Below are positions 41,373 through 64,000 of a stretch of 64,000 nucleotides of DNA, piece after piece; the stretch's first letter is position 1, and every line of letters begins with the position of its first letter. The notes under the pieces were generated by a model. That model was not told the origin of the DNA and made no database searches. It saw only the letters and a program-made list of their open reading frames with translations. The DNA lies in assembly GCF_058153355.1 (NCBI RefSeq), contig NZ_CM177019.1; one strand, given 5' to 3'. A program made the translations under genes and the position numbers.

Positions 41373-42881
<1,509 letters not shown>

Positions 42882-42987
42882 CATGCCTGCAATCTGGGAA
42901 ACCGGGGTAGAAAAAAACTTGCAGGCCATAACAGTATCTACGGGTCCGCACCTGTTTTTATGCGTCTGCCCGTTTGTAGGCCCGAAC

Positions 42988-48849: not shown

Positions 48850-49042
48850 GTTGGATCCTTACCGGTAAATCGTGCCGGTTAAAAGCGGCGTGAAGTTGGA
48901 GATTCTTAAGTTCCGTAAACCGGGCGCCAGACACCGGATGCAGCCTGCATACGGGCACAAACATAAAAATATGTGCGAACTCGTAGATACTGTTATGGCC
49001 TGCAAGTTTTTTTCTACCCCGGTTTCCCAGATTGCAGGCATG

Positions 49043-50269
<1,227 letters not shown>

Positions 50270-50307
50270 TGATAAGCGTAGCGCATCAGGCAATCTGGCA
50301 CCAGACA

Positions 50308-51021
50308 TCACGCCGCATCACTGTCGGCATCGGGTACGCCAAACTGGCTAATCATGGTGAACGGCACTTCGCCTACACCGGCAACGTTAAGCACCGGAGA
50401 GCTGCCGTCGAGCGGGATGCGCACATCTTCCACTTCGCCGGAGACTTCAATCGGTACTTCTTCTTCCCCGGTATTGGTCACCACCGAGACGTCGTAATCG
50501 CCCGGCGGGATGCCGTAATCCGCCGGGTTAATCGAGAAATCCACTTGGCCTGGCCCAACCGACGAACTCCCTTCCGGGATCAGCGAGACGGTGTAGTCAT
50601 CGCCCGCAGCATCGGTAAAGTGGAGATCGGCGGTGGTACAGGCGTCGTCCAGCGTGGCGCGACCGTTAATGGTCTGGTCACTCACCTGCAAGGCGGTGGT
50701 CTGCACCATAATGTCGTCGCCCACCAGGTTGCCGAGCGCCATCACCTGAATGTTGCTCATCAGCACCGCGTTGGTATTGGCCTGCACGCTCATCTCTTCC
50801 ATCATCGCCACCTGCGCCATCGACGAAAGCTGGTCGATATATTCGGTGGCATCGGTCGGGTCGGTCGGGTCCTGGTTTTGGATCTCAGCGACAAACAGCG
50901 TCAGGAAAGTATCGACGGGCGAGCTATCGCTGCTGCTTGTCGTGTCGCTGGCTGCCACATTATTGCTTTCCGCCGTGGCGGTCGGTTGCGGCGATTGCGC
51001 ATTCAGCGCCAGGGTATTCAT
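50308..51021 (-). CDS. lfgD: FlgD-like hook capping/assembly protein
   Basis: 237 aa; FlgD-type motif FLTLFVAEIQNQDPTDPTD. Confidence 0.8.
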   Translation of the reverse strand: MNTLALNAQSPQPTATAESNNVAASDTTSSSDSSPVDTFLTLFVAEIQNQDPTDPTDATEYIDQLSSMAQVAMMEEMSVQANTNAVLMSNIQVMALGNLVGDDIMVQTTALQVSDQTINGRATLDDACTTADLHFTDAAGDDYTVSLIPEGSSSVGPGQVDFSINPADYGIPPGDYDVSVVTNTGEEEVPIEVSGEVEDVRIPLDGSSPVLNVAGVGEVPFTMISQFGVPDADSDAA

Positions 51022-53533: not shown

Positions 53534-54463
53534 ATGAGTTTTATTGAATGTTACGAACCGGAATATGTGCGCAATTTTATGGCGCAATATCCCGATTCGC
53601 CTTTATACGTCAGCAAGGTGTGGAAGAATGAGATTCGCCAGAGCCTGGCATTGACCGATATTGCCAGTTGCAAAGCAGTGCTCAACGATGCCAGGGCCTT
53701 TGAATTACAGCTTACCTATCGCCCTGTGGAAGAAAATGCCGCAGCGCTCTCCGCGCGCGATGTGATAGTCAACCAGATAATTTTGAGCACCCTCACGCTC
53801 CCCGATTTAACCCCAGAGCTTTCACTGTATGCCGTCGGGATTTTGCTCTCCCGCGCCCGTAAAATGCCGGGCAGAGACGGCGATACTCTCGCCCGGCTGA
53901 CAGCACTGCCGCAGGCGCTGGCCGATCACGCCCAAATAGGCACGTTACAGGCACAGTTCGCCCAGCTACCGCCTGTGCCACTGCTGGCGCGCCAACTGGT
54001 GACGCTGCTCGGGAGTTTTGCATTTGACTGGTCGATACTGCCAGAAAGCCCGCGCAAAAATTCGCTGCCGTTGCAGGTAACCTTGCTAACGCTGCATGAC
54101 GCCAACAGCGAAGCCCTGATGCAGCAGCAGCTACAGACACAGTGGCAAACTACCTGGCAACAGCATTTTGCCACCGCTCCGTGGATGATGCGTAACTGGC
54201 TGATTTACCGGGTTTATCACGATGTGATTGGCCAGGCAGACGGGGCGGGTTATTTCCCGCTGGTGTGTGACTTTTACCTCATCCGCACGTTAATCAGTTT
54301 ATGGACGCTGGATGATTCACCGCTGCGGCAGGAGGATATTTTCGCCCTCTTCGCGGTGTTTGAACGCTGGCGAGTGAGTGAAAATGCCGTGCTGATTCGC
54401 CAGCAAATTCAGTCATTATGTGCCGCCGACCCGCTGCTTTCAGCGTTTTCGTTGCTGCCGTGA
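53534..54463 (+). CDS. Hypothetical protein (Flag-2 variable region)
   Basis: About 310 aa ORF from first ATG; no recognisable motif. Confidence 0.4.
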   Translation: MSFIECYEPEYVRNFMAQYPDSPLYVSKVWKNEIRQSLALTDIASCKAVLNDARAFELQLTYRPVEENAAALSARDVIVNQIILSTLTLPDLTPELSLYAVGILLSRARKMPGRDGDTLARLTALPQALADHAQIGTLQAQFAQLPPVPLLARQLVTLLGSFAFDWSILPESPRKNSLPLQVTLLTLHDANSEALMQQQLQTQWQTTWQQHFATAPWMMRNWLIYRVYHDVIGQADGAGYFPLVCDFYLIRTLISLWTLDDSPLRQEDIFALFAVFERWRVSENAVLIRQQIQSLCAADPLLSAFSLLP

Positions 54464-54482
54464 GTCGCTCTGTGCGCGCTTT

Positions 54483-54594
54483 GCCCCTCACCCTAACCCT
54501 CTCTCCAAAGGGGCGAGGGAACCGATCGAGCACGGTGTTAAAATCGGCGCTGGTTTTCTCCCTCTCCCTGTGGGAGAGGGCCGGGGTGAGGGGC
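54483..54594. repeat. GC-rich palindromic intergenic repeat pair (BoxC-like)
   Basis: GCCCCTCACCCTAACCCTCTCTCCAAAGGGGCGAGGGAACC and CTCCCTCTCCCTGTGGGAGAGGGCCGGGGTGAGGGGC forming long-range inverted repeats. Confidence 0.4.
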
Positions 54595-54651
54595 ATCAGC
54601 GCGCACATTCAGCACCTCCATCACATTCACCCACTAACTCACCCAAACACC

Positions 54652-57096: not shown

Positions 57097-57107
57097 ACCA
57101 CAGAAGT

Positions 57108-57204
<97 letters not shown>

Positions 57205-57422
57205 ACGAACAGCGCACTTATCTACCCTTCGATTTTAAATACATCTCTTTATGGCTGGTGAATCGGTAAAGTCGTAGATTGTGGGGGAGCGATCTTTATG
57301 AATTCTGAAAAAAACCTGAATCTTGCTAAACATATTGCTTATCATAAATATAGGTTACACACTATAAAAATTACTGCGTAATTTAACATTTTGTCTAAAA
57401 ATGATAGAGCATAAACGATAAC

Positions 57423-58244
57423 ATGACTTATAATAAAAAAGTAACTTCCGGTACAACAAGCCAGAAACAAAACAACATTGTCACTCAAAAAATATCTCGC
57501 CCAAAGGAATTGTTTCTATTATTTTGGGTTGATGAGTCCGATGATAGCCGACGTTCTATTTTTGAAGAAGCATGTCTGACGCGTTATTTCAATATCCTTT
57601 ACTCCCCCGAGTATAAAAAAGAAACACAGATAGTTTATCATTTATCAATTAACACATTTAATCAAATCAAAGAAATATTAGAAATCTTTATAAACAAGAA
57701 TGGAGGTAAAACTAAAGCAAAGGTTAAAGAAGTCAGTTTATTCTCACATGGGGGGCCAATTCATGGTCCTACAACCTCAAACTCTATAAATACACCTTCC
57801 GTGCCTAAATACCCACAACAAATGGACATATCCGGAGGATGGGATTCAATTGATTTTAACTGGTCAAACAATGCTATGTTTGTTATGTATGGTTGTCGCA
57901 CTAGTTATGCAAGTGATGATTCAGGACAAGGTTTTGCCAGTAAATTATCCCTATTAGATAATTTTAAGGACGTGAATGTCTGGGGTCAAACAGAAAGTAC
58001 TTATCCATCTTATTTCCCAGATATCAGGACAACGTCGATTATGAGGTCAATAAATATAGGTTGGTCTTTTTCACCAACATACATGGTTGCCAATTCTGAA
58101 GGTCAAGGATGGGATGCATTATTCCCGGATGATCGAAATCCATTAAAAGCTCTCCCTATGCAGTGTTATAATAATGGGACATTGATTTTAACCTGCGATC
58201 AAAGCAATTTTAATGATCACCGGAAGAATAAATCAAATGATTAG
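57423..58244 (+). CDS. Hypothetical protein, strongly AT-rich orphan
   Basis: 273 aa ORF in a low-GC segment; no recognised domain. Confidence 0.45.
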   Translation: MTYNKKVTSGTTSQKQNNIVTQKISRPKELFLLFWVDESDDSRRSIFEEACLTRYFNILYSPEYKKETQIVYHLSINTFNQIKEILEIFINKNGGKTKAKVKEVSLFSHGGPIHGPTTSNSINTPSVPKYPQQMDISGGWDSIDFNWSNNAMFVMYGCRTSYASDDSGQGFASKLSLLDNFKDVNVWGQTESTYPSYFPDIRTTSIMRSINIGWSFSPTYMVANSEGQGWDALFPDDRNPLKALPMQCYNNGTLILTCDQSNFNDHRKNKSND

Positions 58245-58791
58245 CATTGTATTGAGAAGCATTGTATTGAGAAGCTTTATTTTATTATTCATAATAATAG
58301 TGTATCCGGATTATAATAAAAACCCACCTGCCTTTGAAGTATATGGGGAAAATGACATACTTAAGGATATGGTTATTAATATGAAAACTTATAGATACCA
58401 TAGTAGGGAAAACTCTTCCCCCACAGCTATAGTGCAAACCATCCTTTTTAAAGGAAATATACAGCAAGTTTTTGAAAGCAATGACATGGGTGGTGCGAGC
58501 TTCTTTTTTTCTTATAACAATAAGGTTGAAACGCTGGTAACAGACGCTTTCTTTTTAAATAAAAAATTAGACAAACTGCATGATGCAAATATTTTTGAGG
58601 TTATAAAGCATAAGGAAAACATCGTTATTAGATATTACAAGTGCAAAATTGAATATATGCAAAGAGAAAAATTTATCGAAATAGAGATATCAACAAACAA
58701 AAATAGTTATTTTAACAAGAATGGAATAAAACAAAAAGATACAAATAAATATAACACATATTTCTTCAATTACTTTGAGTCTCAAAAATAA
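58213..58791 (+). CDS. Hypothetical membrane-anchored protein, strongly AT-rich orphan
   Basis: 192 aa, N-terminal hydrophobic helix, Lys/Asn-rich; contains a 15-bp perfect tandem duplication near the start; overlaps upstream ORF. Confidence 0.4.
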   Translation: MITGRINQMISIVLRSIVLRSFILLFIIIVYPDYNKNPPAFEVYGENDILKDMVINMKTYRYHSRENSSPTAIVQTILFKGNIQQVFESNDMGGASFFFSYNNKVETLVTDAFFLNKKLDKLHDANIFEVIKHKENIVIRYYKCKIEYMQREKFIEIEISTNKNSYFNKNGIKQKDTNKYNTYFFNYFESQK

Positions 58792-58794
58792 ATT

Positions 58795-59199
58795 TTATTT
58801 TGTCATGCGCGCCCTCCTAATCACCTCAATAATCCCCGTCGTCGACACTGACGGCGTGCGGGGGAAATAGACCACCTCACAAATATACGCGAAGCTATCA
58901 AACTTCCCCGCCCAGTCATCGCCCATCACCAAAACATCCGCACTGTAACCGCGCAGATATTCCGCTTTCAGCGCCAGCGATTCCTCGAGAAATACGCCAT
59001 CCACGCACGCCAGCCCGGCGATAATCGCCATGCGGTCATCCTGAGGGTAAACCGGTGCCCTGCCCTTTTTAGCAATGTTCAGGGCGTCAGACGATACGCC
59101 GACCAGCAGCCGTTCGCCCAGCGTGCGGGCGCGTTGTAAAAGGAGCAGATGACCGACATGAAACACATCGAAGGTGCCGAAGGTGATGACCGTTTTCAT
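58795..59199 (-). CDS. Cytidylyltransferase, TagD-like (glycerol-3-phosphate cytidylyltransferase family)
   Basis: Start moved to MKTVITFGTFDVFHVGHL (HxGH nucleotidyltransferase motif) with GGAG RBS; directly downstream of lfiJ. Confidence 0.8.
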   Translation of the reverse strand: MKTVITFGTFDVFHVGHLLLLQRARTLGERLLVGVSSDALNIAKKGRAPVYPQDDRMAIIAGLACVDGVFLEESLALKAEYLRGYSADVLVMGDDWAGKFDSFAYICEVVYFPRTPSVSTTGIIEVIRRARMTK

Positions 59200-59201
59200 G
59201 G

Positions 59202-59636
59202 CTACTCCGCTAATTTGTGCCGTAGCCAGCACTGAACGGCGATGTCATCCACCGCTTTTTGCGCTTTCGCCGTGGCACTTTCTTGCTGCTCGCGGCGTTT
59301 GTCATCCAGCGTCAGGGCCACCACTTTCTCTTCGCATGCCGCCGCCGTCAGGTTTTTCTGCATTCGCGTAGCCTTGATGTTAGCCAGCGTTTTTTCCTGC
59401 TCCTGCCAGGCGATCACTTTGCGCAAGGTGCCTTTGTAGCCGCTGACGTTTTTCAGCGATTCCACCGACGCCGCCGCGCCCGCAGATGTTTTCTCCACCA
59501 GGTAGCCTAACGCTTTGATATTGTTGTCATAGCCCGCGCAAATCTGTTTTTGCTTTGCCAGCTCGACGGTTTTGTCTTTGACCGATTTATCCCGCAGGCG
59601 CTGCAATTGCGCGAGGGTGTCGATGATTTGTCGCAT
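59202..59636 (-). CDS. lfiJ: FliJ-like flagellar export protein
   Basis: 144 aa coiled-coil protein following fliI. Confidence 0.7.
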   Translation of the reverse strand: MRQIIDTLAQLQRLRDKSVKDKTVELAKQKQICAGYDNNIKALGYLVEKTSAGAAASVESLKNVSGYKGTLRKVIAWQEQEKTLANIKATRMQKNLTAAACEEKVVALTLDDKRREQQESATAKAQKAVDDIAVQCWLRHKLAE

Positions 59637-59638
59637 AG

Positions 59639-60976
59639 TTACTGTTCTGCCTTTTTGGCACCAGGAAAGAGGATTTGCAGGCGGCTTTGTACCAGTTCGA
59701 GGGAGGCGGGTTCGCGCATCTCCTGGCGTAAAAATCGCTCGATGGCCGGGAACATTTTCACCGCTTTGTCGACGCTGGCATCCGCGCCTGCCACGTAGCC
59801 ACCGAGTGGGATCAGCGGTTTGATCTCCATATAGGCGGCGTAGTTTTGCTTTAACGCGCGAGCGGATTGCTGATGTTCCGGGCGGGTGACCTGGTTCATG
59901 CAGCGGCTGATCGACTGGCCGATATCGATGGCCGGATAGTGCCCCGCTTCCGCCAGTTTGCGGGTTAATACGATATGCCCGTCCAGCACCGCGCGGGCGC
60001 AGTCGACGATGGGATCTTGCTGGTCGTCGCCTTCCGCCAGCACGGTGTAGATGGCAGTCATCGATCCCGCGCTTTCGCTGTTGCCTGCGCTTTCGACCAG
60101 TTTGGGGATCATGCCGAATGCCGACGGCGGATAGCCTTTGGTAGCGGGCGGTTCGCCAAGAGAGAGCGCAATTTCACGCTGCGCCATCGCATAGCGGGTC
60201 AGGGAATCCACCAGCAGCAAAACGTGATGCCCGCGGTCGCGAAACCAGGCGGCGATGGAGTGGCACAGTTCGGTGGCTTTCAGGCGCATCAGCGGCGATT
60301 CATCGGCGGGCGCGACGACGACGATAGACTTCGCCAGCCCGTCCGCGCCCAGTGAATGGTCGATAAACTCTTTCACTTCGCGCCCGCGTTCGCCAATCAG
60401 CCCGACCACCACGATGTCGGCTTTGGTCTGGCGGGTGATCATCCCCAGCAGCACGCTTTTCCCGACGCCGCTGCCCGCCATTAGCCCGACGCGCTGGCCT
60501 TTGCCGATGGTCAGCAGACCGTTGATCGCTTTTACACCCACATCTAAGGGTTCGTCCACCGAACGGCGGGTTAAGGGATTGACCGAGGGCGGCAACGGCG
60601 GCAGAAGATCGTTGCCGTTCAGGCGACCTTTGCCATCCAGCGGTTCGCCGAGGCCATTCACCACGCGGCCTAACCAGCTTTCGCCAATCAAAATATCGTG
60701 GGCTTTTTCTTCCGGGAAGACACGCGCCCCCGCCATCAGGCCAACTGGCTGTTTGAATGGCATTAAATAGGTGATGTCGCGATTAAAGCCCACGGCCTGC
60801 GCGTCAATCAGCGTGTGGTTGGCACTTTCGATGCGGCACAACTGCCCGGTCATTAACGGGCAGCCGACGCTCTCCAGCAGAATGCCGTTCAGGCGCACCA
60901 GCCGTCCGGCGACGCGAGCCAGCGGGATCGACTCCAGCGAACGCAGGGCGTTATCGAAAGCAGAAAAATCACTCAC
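59639..60976 (-). CDS. lfiI: Flagellum-specific ATPase FliI
   Basis: 445 aa; Walker A GSGVGKS and Walker B, F1-ATPase-like. Confidence 0.9.
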   Translation of the reverse strand: MSDFSAFDNALRSLESIPLARVAGRLVRLNGILLESVGCPLMTGQLCRIESANHTLIDAQAVGFNRDITYLMPFKQPVGLMAGARVFPEEKAHDILIGESWLGRVVNGLGEPLDGKGRLNGNDLLPPLPPSVNPLTRRSVDEPLDVGVKAINGLLTIGKGQRVGLMAGSGVGKSVLLGMITRQTKADIVVVGLIGERGREVKEFIDHSLGADGLAKSIVVVAPADESPLMRLKATELCHSIAAWFRDRGHHVLLLVDSLTRYAMAQREIALSLGEPPATKGYPPSAFGMIPKLVESAGNSESAGSMTAIYTVLAEGDDQQDPIVDCARAVLDGHIVLTRKLAEAGHYPAIDIGQSISRCMNQVTRPEHQQSARALKQNYAAYMEIKPLIPLGGYVAGADASVDKAVKMFPAIERFLRQEMREPASLELVQSRLQILFPGAKKAEQ

Positions 60977-61679
60977 TCTGCGTCTCCGGCGTCAGCGTCT
61001 CTTGCAGCGCGGTCATGCATTGTTCAAGGCGATGCTCGCAGCCGATATCCAGTTCTGATTTATCGGTGATCACCCGGCATTCCCCCGGCGGCAAATCCGG
61101 CGAAGGCGTCAGCCCCCATTCGCTGACCTTTTCCGGCACCGCGTCGCGCAGGCGGTTAAACTCTTCCGTGCTCAACATCACTTGCAGGGTTTCCGGCATC
61201 GCCGGGAAGGCCGCCAGCGCCTCTTCCACCAGCGCCAGTAACTGCGTCGGTTGCAGCGCCAGTTCGCAGCGAATCACCTGGCGGGTGACTTTTTCCACCA
61301 GTTGCAGCAAATCTTCCCGCTGTTTACGTTCGATATGGGCGAGGAAGTCGTTCACTTTACCGCTGATGGCTTCCAGCGGCTGCGCCGCCTCAATAAATTT
61401 CTTGCGCCCTTCCTGCTGCCCGGCGAGGCTGCCTTCGGTGTAGCCCTGACGTTGCCCCTCGGCAAAACCTTGCTGATGACCTTCGCTAAAGCCCTGCTCC
61501 TGCCCCTCGGTCATGCCCTGAGCAAACCCTTTTTGCAGCCCTTCCTGAAAACCGTCCATCAACTGGCGCTGGTAATCGGCGGCGCTAATGCTGGCAGTGA
61601 GCGGTTCTCCGGTCACCGCACGCTGGCGCGGCGGGAAACGGTGCAGGCGATAGCGCCCGCGCAGTGTTTCAATGGTCAT
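60969..61679 (-). CDS. lfiH: FliH-like flagellar assembly protein
   Basis: 236 aa, between fliG and fliI. Confidence 0.75.
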   Translation of the reverse strand: MTIETLRGRYRLHRFPPRQRAVTGEPLTASISAADYQRQLMDGFQEGLQKGFAQGMTEGQEQGFSEGHQQGFAEGQRQGYTEGSLAGQQEGRKKFIEAAQPLEAISGKVNDFLAHIERKQREDLLQLVEKVTRQVIRCELALQPTQLLALVEEALAAFPAMPETLQVMLSTEEFNRLRDAVPEKVSEWGLTPSPDLPPGECRVITDKSELDIGCEHRLEQCMTALQETLTPETQSE

Positions 61680-61682
61680 GGG

Positions 61683-62693
61683 TTACTCCGCCGTCTGTTC
61701 CGCAAAGAGCTGTAGCTGAAGTTCGCCCGCCTCTTCCAGTTCACGGGCGATACCCATGATTTCGCGGCGGATCTGTTCGATACGGCTGACCGGCACCGGC
61801 CCCAGACGCGCAGTGATCGCTTCCAGTTGCTGCACCTGACGTTTTGGCATCACCGCGTAAATGGAGCGACGTAACAGAGCTTCGGTGCCTTTCAGCGCCA
61901 CCGCCCAGTCTTCCATCGGCACTTCGTCGAGCAGGCGTCGGCGCACCTCTTCGTTCTGGCGACTGAGGATAAAGAAGTCGTACATCTCATCCTGCAACTG
62001 CTCCAGTACGTCTTCGTCGCGCTCGCGCATCTGGTCGAGGATCACCTGCTGGTTGCCCTGGAAGCGGTTGACAATATCCGCCGCCTGTTTGATGCCTTTC
62101 ACCTTCGAGCCGTGCTCTGAAAGCACCGACAGGCCACGTTCGATCAGACGATCCAGTTCATCCACCACGTCGCGGTTGACGTCGTTGAGTTTCGCTACCC
62201 GGTAAAGAATTTCGTTTTGCACCGATTCGTTGAGATAAGAGAGCACCGCTGCCGAGATTTCCGGCGTCAGAAACGCGAGGAATACCGCCTGCAATTGCAG
62301 ATGCTCTTCGGAGATCAGCATCGCCAGCTGGCGCGGTTCCACCCATTGCAGGCGCGCCATCCGCGAGCGGATCTCATCGCCGTAGATGCCGTTGATCACG
62401 CTGCTGGCGATCTCGGTGCCCAACGCCTTGTTAAGAATGCCCTGCAACATGGATCGCGATGCACCGTTGATCCCGCTCTGTTCGCGGAATTCATCAAAGA
62501 AGTTATTGATCACCTTGCGCGCCATGCTGGTTTTGACGCCGGAAAGCCGCGCCATGTTTTCGCTCAGGCGCACTACTTCTTCGCGGCTGAGTTTTTGCAT
62601 CACCGTTGCCGCCGCTTCTTCGCCCAGACACAGCAGCAGGATCGCCGCCTGTTCCAGGTAGCTGTTGCTCTTATTTATTGTCAATTCGCTCAT
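61683..62693 (-). CDS. lfiG: Flagellar motor switch protein FliG
   Basis: Start moved to MSELTINKSNSYLEQAAILLL; FliG middle and C-terminal domains. Confidence 0.85.
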   Translation of the reverse strand: MSELTINKSNSYLEQAAILLLCLGEEAAATVMQKLSREEVVRLSENMARLSGVKTSMARKVINNFFDEFREQSGINGASRSMLQGILNKALGTEIASSVINGIYGDEIRSRMARLQWVEPRQLAMLISEEHLQLQAVFLAFLTPEISAAVLSYLNESVQNEILYRVAKLNDVNRDVVDELDRLIERGLSVLSEHGSKVKGIKQAADIVNRFQGNQQVILDQMRERDEDVLEQLQDEMYDFFILSRQNEEVRRRLLDEVPMEDWAVALKGTEALLRRSIYAVMPKRQVQQLEAITARLGPVPVSRIEQIRREIMGIARELEEAGELQLQLFAEQTAE

Positions 62694-64000
62694 TGCTGGT
62701 AATCCATTGTCTGAGAACTTCGGCAACGCGATCGGTATCGCTCATGGCCAATTTTTGCAGGAACTCGAGTTTCACTTCGAGGCCAGAACTCTGGGACGGC
62801 AGGCTGTCATCGCCAGGCAGCGACGGCAGGTCGACATTTTTACGCTCCTCTTCCGGCACGGCGATCCACGGTTCGCTGATGGCTTCCGGTTCTGGTGTGA
62901 TAACCGGCGCACGTACCGCCGTCAGCCGTTTCATCAGCGGGCGCACCACAAAGAACAGCAGCAACAGCGCCAGCAGGCCGCAGCCAATCAGCCGCACCCA
63001 CGCCAGTACACTGTCATCTTTCCACAGTGGAATAACCGGTTCGACAGGCACCGCCTGCGGCACAAAGTTGAGCAGTGATAAGGTGAGATTGTCACCACGC
63101 TGGGCGTCGATTCCGGCGGCATTGTTCAGCAACGCGGTCAGTTGCGTGGTTTGCTCCGGCTTCCAGTTTTTCAGCGCCGGGGCGTTTTGATTGAGCACCA
63201 CCGCCACGTTGAGGCGTTTCACCGCAAAGCCGGGATGCTGAATATGCTGGACGCTGCGGTCGTAAGAGTAGTCGCGCTTACTTTCGCTGTGTTTGGAAAG
63301 CGCTTCCGGCGAGCGGTTTTCTTCCGCACCGTTGGTCATCTGATTCGCTGCAATCGGCGGACGGTTACTGAGTGAACCGGGCACGCCCATCGCCACCTGA
63401 TTGGTGTCGCTGTCCAGCACGCTCTCTTCGCGGTTGATTTTCGGCGCGTCGCCGTAGTGTTCCTGAGTTTCGTCGATGGTGCTGAGGTCGAGATCCGGCA
63501 TCACACTGACGCGGTAATTCCCCATGCCAACCAGCGAATCCAGCACGTTCGCCACGCTGGCACGGGTTTTGTCCTGAATATCTTTGAGGATCTGATCGCG
63601 TTTACGGGTCGCGGCAGAAACCGCCTCGCCGGCGCCAATGCCGTCGGTCAGCAGATTTCCCGCCTGATCGACCACGCTGACTTTACTGGCTTGCAGCCCC
63701 GGAATACTGCCGGACACCAGATGCACAATGGCGTTCACCTGGTCCATATTCAGCTTCGCGCCGTAATGCAAGCGCACCACCACCGAGGCACTGTTTTGCG
63801 GCTCATCGCTGACCACAAACGAGCTTTCTTCGTTGATCGCCAGATGCACCCGCGCGCTCTCCACCGCGTCCAGCGACATGATGCTCTGCGCCAGCTCCCC
63901 TTCGAGACTGCGTTTATAGCGCACGTTCTGCACGAACTGACTGCTGCCGAGCACTTCGTCTTTGTCCATCAGCTCGTAGCCGCTGGGCAATATCGCCTGC
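62671..64000 (-). CDS. lfiF: Flagellar MS-ring protein FliF, partial (N-terminus beyond window end)
   Basis: C-terminal about 440 aa of FliF-like protein; ORF open to window edge. Confidence 0.85.
   Translation of the reverse strand, partial: QAILPSGYELMDKDEVLGSSQFVQNVRYKRSLEGELAQSIMSLDAVESARVHLAINEESSFVVSDEPQNSASVVVRLHYGAKLNMDQVNAIVHLVSGSIPGLQASKVSVVDQAGNLLTDGIGAGEAVSAATRKRDQILKDIQDKTRASVANVLDSLVGMGNYRVSVMPDLDLSTIDETQEHYGDAPKINREESVLDSDTNQVAMGVPGSLSNRPPIAANQMTNGAEENRSPEALSKHSESKRDYSYDRSVQHIQHPGFAVKRLNVAVVLNQNAPALKNWKPEQTTQLTALLNNAAGIDAQRGDNLTLSLLNFVPQAVPVEPVIPLWKDDSVLAWVRLIGCGLLALLLLFFVVRPLMKRLTAVRAPVITPEPEAISEPWIAVPEEERKNVDLPSLPGDDSLPSQSSGLEVKLEFLQKLAMSDTDRVAEVLRQWITSNERIDNK

Follow-up and report, generated by a model that had tools for sequence, protein, structure and literature searches.

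A low-GC gene pair in variable region 1 of the Escherichia coli Flag-2 locus as a probable orphan effector-immunity cassette with a predicted caspase-fold toxin

The 64,000-nucleotide stretch of contig NZ_CM177019.1 (NCBI RefSeq assembly GCF_058153355.1) that we analysed, hereafter the window, carries among its flagellar genes a strongly AT-rich insert of two overlapping open reading frames (ORFs): ORF1 (57423-58244, + strand, 273 aa) and ORF2 (58237-58791, + strand, 184 aa). We consider this insert to be, in all probability, an orphan effector-immunity cassette of the T6SS (type VI secretion system)/polymorphic-toxin kind, lodged in variable region 1 (VR1) of the Flag-2 (lateral flagella) locus of Escherichia coli. 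The basis for this reading is the homology network of ORF1, its fold, the conservation of a His/Cys dyad, the pairing of the two genes, the T6SS and Rhs contexts of their relatives and the population pattern of the cassette. ORF1 would thus be a stand-alone toxin (effector) built on a putative cysteine protease domain of caspase fold (clan CD, DUF4347/Tce1-like), and ORF2 the corresponding immunity protein. An earlier note, made from the letters of the sequence, had described the segment as a recently acquired cassette and had offered as possible functions a small secreted effector with a partner protein or a flagellin-modification accessory; the two overlapping ORFs that it gave (273 aa and 192 aa) were reproduced, and the first of its two suggestions comes close to the evidence obtained from relatives.

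In mechanistic terms, the N-terminal leader would bring ORF1, as a cargo toxin, to VgrG, an adaptor or Hcp for loading, and the loaded toxin would be injected into neighbouring bacteria, where the His109/Cys158 dyad would cleave an envelope substrate of the target cell. ORF2, exported by its N-terminal signal, would bind and block the toxin in the periplasm, leaving kin cells protected. Such a reading provides a concrete candidate function for two proteins, so far called hypothetical, that more than 100 complete E. coli genomes encode. It would add to the Tce1/DUF4347 effector class a branch equipped, in contrast to Tce1, with a cognate exported immunity protein, and toxicity and rescue assays in E. 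coli would offer a tractable way of approaching the substrates of caspase-fold T6SS toxins. It also implies that the low-GC cargo of the Flag-2 variable region need not concern flagella. The ORF1 family and its ORF2 partner are uncharacterised in the literature searched; for specialists the result is useful more than surprising, since the kind of system is already well known.

Predicted fold and active site of ORF1

The earlier note had proposed structure prediction as a check, and AlphaFold2, run on ORF1 with an alignment of 83 relatives (which replaced an earlier run with 8 sequences, pLDDT 58.6), returned a caspase fold (pLDDT 93.8, pTM 0.90). The predicted structure resembles the solved C-terminal domain of Tce1 and displays the features of clan CD, namely an alpha/beta caspase fold in which a His precedes a Cys and a hydrophobic beta-strand leads, at its C-terminal end, into each of the two. 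The putative catalytic His109 (FSHG motif; codon at 57747-57749, + strand) comes after beta-strand 99-107, and the putative catalytic Cys158 (YGC motif; codon at 57894-57896, + strand) after beta-strand 147-155 (DSSP of the model). Both are conserved among the relatives (His109 in 81/83, Cys158 in 82/83), as are Gly157 (83/83), Glu103 (82/83), Gln133 (82/83), Arg54 (79/80) and Arg202 (75/83), and the ORF1 of the window is intact and keeps all of the conserved residues. Judged by the model, residues ~27-268 of ORF1 are a caspase-fold (clan CD) domain related to Tce1 (DUF4347) of Pseudomonas aeruginosa, and the activity predicted for ORF1 is that of a cysteine peptidase or amidase using His109 and Cys158. 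Two other assignments were rejected: a serine hydrolase (on account of the FSHG motif), as every fold match belonged to clan CD, and an L,D-transpeptidase-like enzyme (HGC-type motif), for which, in addition to the clan CD fold matches, the spacing of 49 residues between His and Cys is unlike that of YkuD.

The S1 pocket of caspase-3, taken for comparison, involves Arg64, His121, Cys163 and Arg207, and the spacing of the near-invariant Arg54, Gln133 and Arg202 around His109/Cys158 recalls, by analogy, such a pocket. Because these three residues are near-invariant, the enzyme may be specific for a carboxylate-bearing residue; candidate targets next to such a residue would be bonds in the peptidoglycan stem peptide or between Lpp and peptidoglycan, or else envelope proteins. 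We put forward tentatively, and with more doubt than conviction, the further proposal that the ORF1 family might represent the first antibacterial caspase-fold T6SS/Rhs toxins with periplasmic action and a lipoprotein-type immunity family, cleaving an envelope target next to a carboxylate-bearing residue. Literature searches returned nothing on the RefSeq accessions, no characterised periplasmic caspase-like T6SS effector, and no characterisation of the ORF1 family, of its immunity partner or of their periplasmic action.

Relatives, partner gene and known effectors

A word-indexed search with ORF1 retrieved only eight close clusters, and a profile of these eight, run against 1.84 billion representative proteins, retrieved 356 at E <= 1e-3 (95 of them at E <= 1e-30). 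The resulting family (~350 representative proteins) spans Enterobacterales, Acinetobacter and Bacteroidota and is, on these sequence comparisons, a divergent branch without a Pfam or NCBIfam model of its own. Many relatives carry the ORF1-type domain as the extreme C-terminal module of a long protein. The RHS repeat-associated core TIGR03696 (NCBIfam) lies directly before the domain in eight proteins (P0061, P0132, P0140, P0139, P0145, P0122, P0119 and P0098), with 0-22 residues between the end of the core and the start of the domain (in P0061, for example, the core occupies residues 1223-1312 and the domain 1315-1547), as is characteristic of Rhs C-terminal toxins. An Rhs tail joined to an ORF1-type domain was also found in Prevotellaceae (locus L019); ORF1, by contrast, stands alone. 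Among 38 multidomain relatives scanned with Pfam, two have an N-terminal Hcp/TssD domain (E 1.3e-15) and one has LysM, and this single LysM fusion weakly backs an envelope target.

A context search with the close-relative alignment A1 recovered only two loci from species-representative genomes, and P0006, P0007, P0012 and P0022 stood on short contigs that carry little information. Two contexts of stand-alone relatives are informative. At locus L004 a VgrG gene (TIGR03361, E 6.8e-182) is followed by an ORF1 homologue and then by a 179-aa ORF, and the T6SS cluster of L022 comprises ClpV/TssH (E 6.6e-142), a DUF4123 adaptor (E 6.1e-6), an ORF1 homologue, two small ORFs and TagH. T6SS linkage is hence present for homologues (L004, L022 and the two Hcp fusions), and the copy of the window is an orphan in the Flag-2 VR1. 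The first 26 residues of ORF1 (57423-57500, + strand; KKVT.GTT...NNI..QKI.RP; pLDDT 60-74 in the model) form an N-terminal leader that is conserved in A1 and occurs in stand-alone versions only: on the profile, stand-alone relatives align from positions 1-8, and because the fused ones align only from ~22-29, the conserved first ~26 residues are specific to the cargo versions. We infer from the sequences that this leader mediates loading. A 205-aa ORF located 3' of the distant effector-immunity pair of L017 (2492-3109), which gave a faint match to a YopT-type (C58) cysteine protease, may be another toxin of that islet.

In all close contexts (alignment A2) the effector gene is overlapped at its end by a homologous ORF, and by hhalign the partners of more distant effectors matched ORF2 with probabilities of 98.7% (L017), 96.5% (L020) and, marginally, 44% (L022). 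All versions of ORF2 begin with a hydrophobic leader, and most relatives bear a lipobox (LIGC, ICGC, MCGC, CTGC or LPGC) at residues ~17-24; the ORF2 of the window and that of E. coli SMS-3-5 (E. coli type A) have no Cys in the lipobox region. The N-terminal hydrophobic helix noticed in the earlier note was confirmed as MISIVLRSIVLRSFILLFIIIVYPDY, and the signal anchor or signal peptide as a whole (MISIVLRSIVLRSFILLFIIIVYPD; 58237-58311, + strand) is without the lipobox Cys of the relatives. The adjacent gene co-varies with that of the toxin, as seen from its shared divergence in a second allele (type B) and from an immunity-only remnant (both described below). Because it is exported, co-diverges with the toxin and survives alone after deletion of the toxin, ORF2 is best read as a periplasmic immunity protein, which would place the target of the toxin in the envelope of the rival cell. 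This signal or lipoprotein leader is unlike a cytoplasmic antitoxin, and an intracellular conflict system (whether of the type II toxin-antitoxin class or one for phage defence built on a CHAT-type, caspase-like protease) appears extremely improbable to us, considering also that PADLOC found no match for either protein, that no sensor or nucleotide-signalling partner is present, and that the links to Rhs, Hcp and VgrG indicate export.

As for the start of ORF2, the ATG at 58237 is in frame, overlaps the stop of ORF1 in ATGATTAG and is the one used by RefSeq in E. coli SMS-3-5, and a start at this codon (184 aa) is more likely than one at ATG 58213 (58213-58791, 192 aa). From the ATGATTAG overlap, ORF2 appears to be translationally coupled to ORF1. 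The perfect 15-bp in-frame tandem duplication that the earlier note had placed at the beginning of ORF2 was recovered by TRF at 58243-58275 (+ strand; unit AGCATTGTATTGAGA x 2.2, period 15, 100% match), where it inserts SIVLR into the signal region. It is found neither in SMS-3-5 nor in locus L012 (second allele), and since every full-length E. coli match among those listed falls 15 bp short of the query, the duplication occurs only in the window among the sequences compared.

Within the range of known systems, the nearest structural relative is Tce1 (PA0256) of P. aeruginosa, like Tce2 an Hcp3-loaded putative cysteine protease of the H3-T6SS with a DUF4347 domain (PDB 9qpe; PMC8262886, PMC13323088); Tce1 and Tce2 are both putative cysteine proteases whose His/Cys dyad was aligned to that of TcdB (PMC13323088). 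Tce1 shares 13% identity with ORF1 (HMMER against PDB sequences finds no link between them) and has a 100-residue N-terminal domain and no immunity gene, whereas ORF1 has a 26-residue leader and a conserved exported partner; furthermore, Tce1 is loaded by Hcp3, whereas relatives of ORF1 adjoin VgrG and a DUF4123 adaptor rather than showing a known Hcp loading. The 'Tox-Caspase' domain predicted in 2012 at the C-termini of Rhs proteins (Zhang, Aravind et al., PMC3482391) resembles the ORF1 family in its caspase-like fold, its conserved H and C, its Rhs C-terminal position, its T6SS linkage and its occurrence in Bacteroidota and gammaproteobacteria, but was defined in silico and is paired with Imm36 or Imm57, whereas ORF2 has no Pfam family. 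The clan CD peptidases (caspases C14, legumain C13, clostripain C11, gingipain C25, the MARTX/TcdA/TcdB protease domain C80, CHAT) share no detectable sequence homology with ORF1. In genetic organisation the pair is reminiscent of Tse1/Tsi1, Tae/Tai and Tle/Tli, in which a signal-less toxin gene likewise stands directly 5' of a gene for a Sec-exported or lipoprotein immunity protein, and which likewise show orphan copies and immunity-only loci in populations; the toxins of these systems are, unlike ORF1, NlpC/P60-type amidases, muramidases or lipases. To our knowledge, no periplasmic T6SS toxin of the Tse1, Tae or Tle type has a caspase fold.

Distribution, alleles and age of the cassette

The earlier note had called for a presence/absence comparison among Flag-2-positive genomes, and this was made over 5426 complete E. 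coli genomes. The Flag-2 genes lfiIJ are present in 1278 of them, some part of the cassette in 144, and the complete cassette, in the same slot, in 127 (including E. coli NC101 and SMS-3-5), so that ~10% of Flag-2-positive E. coli carry it in full (127 vs 1278 lfiIJ carriers) and ~90% are without it. Between the window and SMS-3-5 the identity is 96.7% for ORF1, 93.4% for ORF2 and 89-96% for the flanks; as the divergence of the cassette equals that of its flanks, its composition is foreign but its arrival is not recent. Of the earlier description as a recently acquired cassette, the foreign character stands and the recency does not, the same slot being occupied in 127 genomes with flank-like divergence; from sequence comparison, the cassette is to be regarded as compositionally foreign but not recently acquired.

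The second allele (type B; L015, L012), which shares this slot and was found in only a handful of complete genomes, has 74.6% (ORF1) and 68.5% (ORF2) DNA identity to the window within flanks of 88-95% identity, both genes having diverged together. In strain 88COLEC, ORF1 is reduced to its last 79 nt and the ORF2 homologue is intact beside three other small hypothetical genes; immunity-only derivatives of this kind were found in ~15 genomes. In 2020CK-00188, which has the closest lfiIJ (99.2%), the content of the slot is unrelated and consists of ISAs1 copies, hypothetical genes and a peptidoglycan-binding protein with an LprI-family inhibitor. Taken together, this pattern (complete in 127 of the 1278 lfiIJ carriers, with a diverged allele, an immunity-only remnant and unrelated contents) is typical of effector-immunity loci, and the VR1 slot behaves as an exchange site for conflict genes and warfare cassettes. 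Individual occupants of the slot include the peptidoglycan-binding protein and LprI-family lysozyme inhibitor between ISAs1 copies in 2020CK-00188 (L013, 1-5600), the three unrelated hypothetical genes with the orphan ORF2 homologue in 88COLEC (L014, 2257-3985), and a cytidylyltransferase fragment with a Fic adenylyltransferase in L015 (5324-6920).

Flagellar loci are not the only home of the pair: Superficieibacter electus has it between nfo-like and fruA genes, and an enterobacterial metagenome contig between tas and lplT. A paralogous pair (46% identity to ORF1) is located near yncG in E. coli GCA_031960385.1 (L016, 6940-9567), directly 3' of an ISAs1-family transposase. The presence of ISAs1 beside the yncG pair and around the VR1 cargo of 2020CK-00188 hints that these elements travel with such cassettes. 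A function as flagellar accessory, in the form of a flagellin-modification enzyme pair (the second suggestion of the earlier note) or of a substrate of the Flag-2 type III export apparatus, would agree with the VR1 position, between a glycosyltransferase of the flagellin-glycosylation type and a cytidylyltransferase, and with the hydrophilic, Ser/Thr/Asn-rich N-terminus of ORF1. It is contradicted by the occurrence of the pair at at least four non-flagellar sites (nfo/fruA, tas/lplT, yncG, vgrG and T6SS-cluster sites being on record), by its absence from ~90% of the lfiIJ-carrying E. coli, by the fusion of the domain to Rhs and Hcp in relatives, and by the lack of the matched lfgE/F/G hook and rod genes throughout the window; we find it scarcely credible, and the suggestion of a flagellin-modification accessory is not supported.

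Several observations nevertheless weigh against the reading of the pair as a T6SS-type effector and its immunity protein. The match of ORF1 to Pfam DUF4347 (PF14252) is weak (E 2.4e-4, 21.4 bits, residues 70-178), none of 38 relatives reaches 1e-3 against this family (four reach 0.1), and HMMER searches of PDB sequences with ORF1, A1 and A4 gave chance matches only; some relatives at 24-32% identity in the AlphaFold database (AFDB) are annotated DUF4347. In view of the weak DUF4347 match and the missing PDB sequence match, the relationship to Tce1 is one of predicted structure. The statement of the earlier note that neither protein has a recognisable motif thus held for NCBIfam and PADLOC (no match for ORF1 or ORF2) and for ORF2 in Pfam (no family, one chance-level match only), and gives way in ORF1 to the DUF4347 match. 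Furthermore, no T6SS gene adjoins the copy in the window, a promoter scan of the AT-rich leader 5' of ORF1 (57216-57422, + strand, GC 0.33-0.40) found no consensus sigma-70 site on the + strand, and AT-rich DNA is frequently silenced. The partner at L021 has no detectable homology to ORF2, and the export or function of the window's own ORF2 could be altered because the lipobox Cys has been lost and five residues of the signal are duplicated. Finally, neither Tce1 nor Tce2 has an immunity gene, neither showed clear toxicity to E. coli in a 2026 study, and both have been proposed as anti-eukaryotic effectors (PMC13323088).

The last of these points leads to the view that ORF1 is a host-directed (anti-eukaryotic) caspase-fold protease effector in the manner of Tce2 and Tce1, and that ORF2 is not an immunity protein. 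An anti-eukaryotic role has been proposed both for Tce1, which among relatives with a solved structure is the closest, and for its companion Tce2, which is toxic to yeast (PMC13323088), and the clan CD domains of MARTX and TcdA/B toxins work in host cells. We hold this view to be very unlikely, given that Tce1 and Tce2 have no neighbouring immunity gene, whereas the ORF1 family has a coupled, co-diverging and exported partner almost everywhere, that immunity-only remnants exist, and that in Bacteroidota the domain sits at Rhs C-termini, the usual position of antibacterial toxins.

The lack of an adjacent T6SS gene and of a consensus promoter would rather fit an immunity island or a decayed remnant, in which the pair is of T6SS type by descent but is not deployed here, the sole present benefit being protection by ORF2 from attackers armed with the toxin, or (AT-silenced) the pair having no role at all. 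The immunity-only derivatives in ~15 genomes and the damage to the surrounding Flag-2 locus in the strain of the window are consistent with such a state. On the other hand, ORF1 is intact with every conserved residue in place, and its 96.7% identity to the SMS-3-5 copy exceeds that of the flanks (89-96%), which argues for purifying selection on the toxin gene; moreover, orphan effectors distant from T6SS clusters are commonly functional. We therefore judge non-deployment to be unlikely, and retain as the probable explanation an orphan effector-immunity cassette.

The VR1 slot, its borders and the surrounding locus

The pao genes of the window are 99.7% identical to those of E. coli chromosomes, and by this sequence identity the DNA is that of E. 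coli. The gene order at the slot (FliB-like lysine methylase, glycosyltransferase, ORF1, ORF2, a convergent glycerol-3-phosphate cytidylyltransferase-like gene, lfiJ and lfiI) is that of VR1 of the E. coli Flag-2 locus, a known hotspot of low-GC cargo according to the searched main-text passages of De Maayer et al. 2020 (PMC6993521), in which a vgrG/Rhs/Imm26 set is present in the VR1 of E. fergusonii. The VR1 cargo described in that text resembles the ORF1-ORF2 pair in its slot between lfiJ and lfgN, its low GC and its many hypothetical proteins; it differs in consisting mostly of flagellin glycosylation and methylation functions, and no function is given there to the pair.

The low GC asserted in the earlier note was borne out by windowed computation, with values of 0.27-0.38 in 300-bp windows over 57250-58899 and of 0.53-0.62 in both flanks (by feature: ORF1 0.354, ORF2 0.283, the upstream glycosyltransferase gene 0.547 and 58795-64000 0.586). 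The two findings that the note had named as contrary to its account, homology of the proteins to Flag-2 core genes and an ordinary GC content, were not encountered. Both genes are AT-rich in every context examined (GC 0.24-0.38), low GC being a property of the gene family across these contexts.

On its left side the AT-rich segment is bordered, as the note had also claimed, by repetitive extragenic palindrome (REP) units, which were read from the sequence at ~57100-57215, directly 3' of the glycosyltransferase gene. A query including these units found matches in 5425 of the 5426 E. coli genomes (median 22 sites per genome), a near-universality due to the REP units in the query; the same motif of 34-35 nt recurs at 41373-41406 and 41578-41611. 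The leader at 57216-57422 is conserved together with the flanks (94% to L015), even where the allele of the cassette differs. Scans for promoters and terminators near the start of ORF1 gave no score above shuffled sequences. On the right side, ORF2 and the convergent cytidylyltransferase gene end 3 bp apart (58791-58795), a gap that leaves no space for terminators, and the terminator scan found no terminator-like site between the two genes. The upstream glycosyltransferase gene is contained in a mechanically called ORF of 892 aa (start region 54418-54651), which begins 78 codons 5' of the RefSeq start in relatives; the extra N-terminal peptide (LTLTLSPKGRGN..., SLSLWERAGVRG) resembles a translated GC-rich intergenic repeat, not coding sequence.

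Elsewhere in the Flag-2 locus, homology to the locus of SMS-3-5 resumes only at lfgD (window 50310 = L001 2419), and the flgE/flgF/flgG segment of SMS-3-5 has no match in the 64-kb window except for the REP motif. From this comparison, a deletion at the second copy of an insertion sequence (region 48850-50310) seems to have removed the hook and rod genes that lie between lfgD and lfgK, and since lfgE/F/G are missing from the window, the Flag-2 lateral flagellar system of this strain is probably non-functional. The element in question belongs to the IS110 family and is present in two inverted copies (41648-42981 and 48943-50276, 1334 nt each, 99% identical), each with an ORF of 326 aa for an 'IS110 family RNA-guided transposase' (E 3.1e-75) and with adjoining REP-like sequence; we take these copies to resemble the REP-targeting IS621. 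The 5.96-kb segment between them contains lafA, a CadC-like regulator, a hypothetical gene, lfgL and lfgK.

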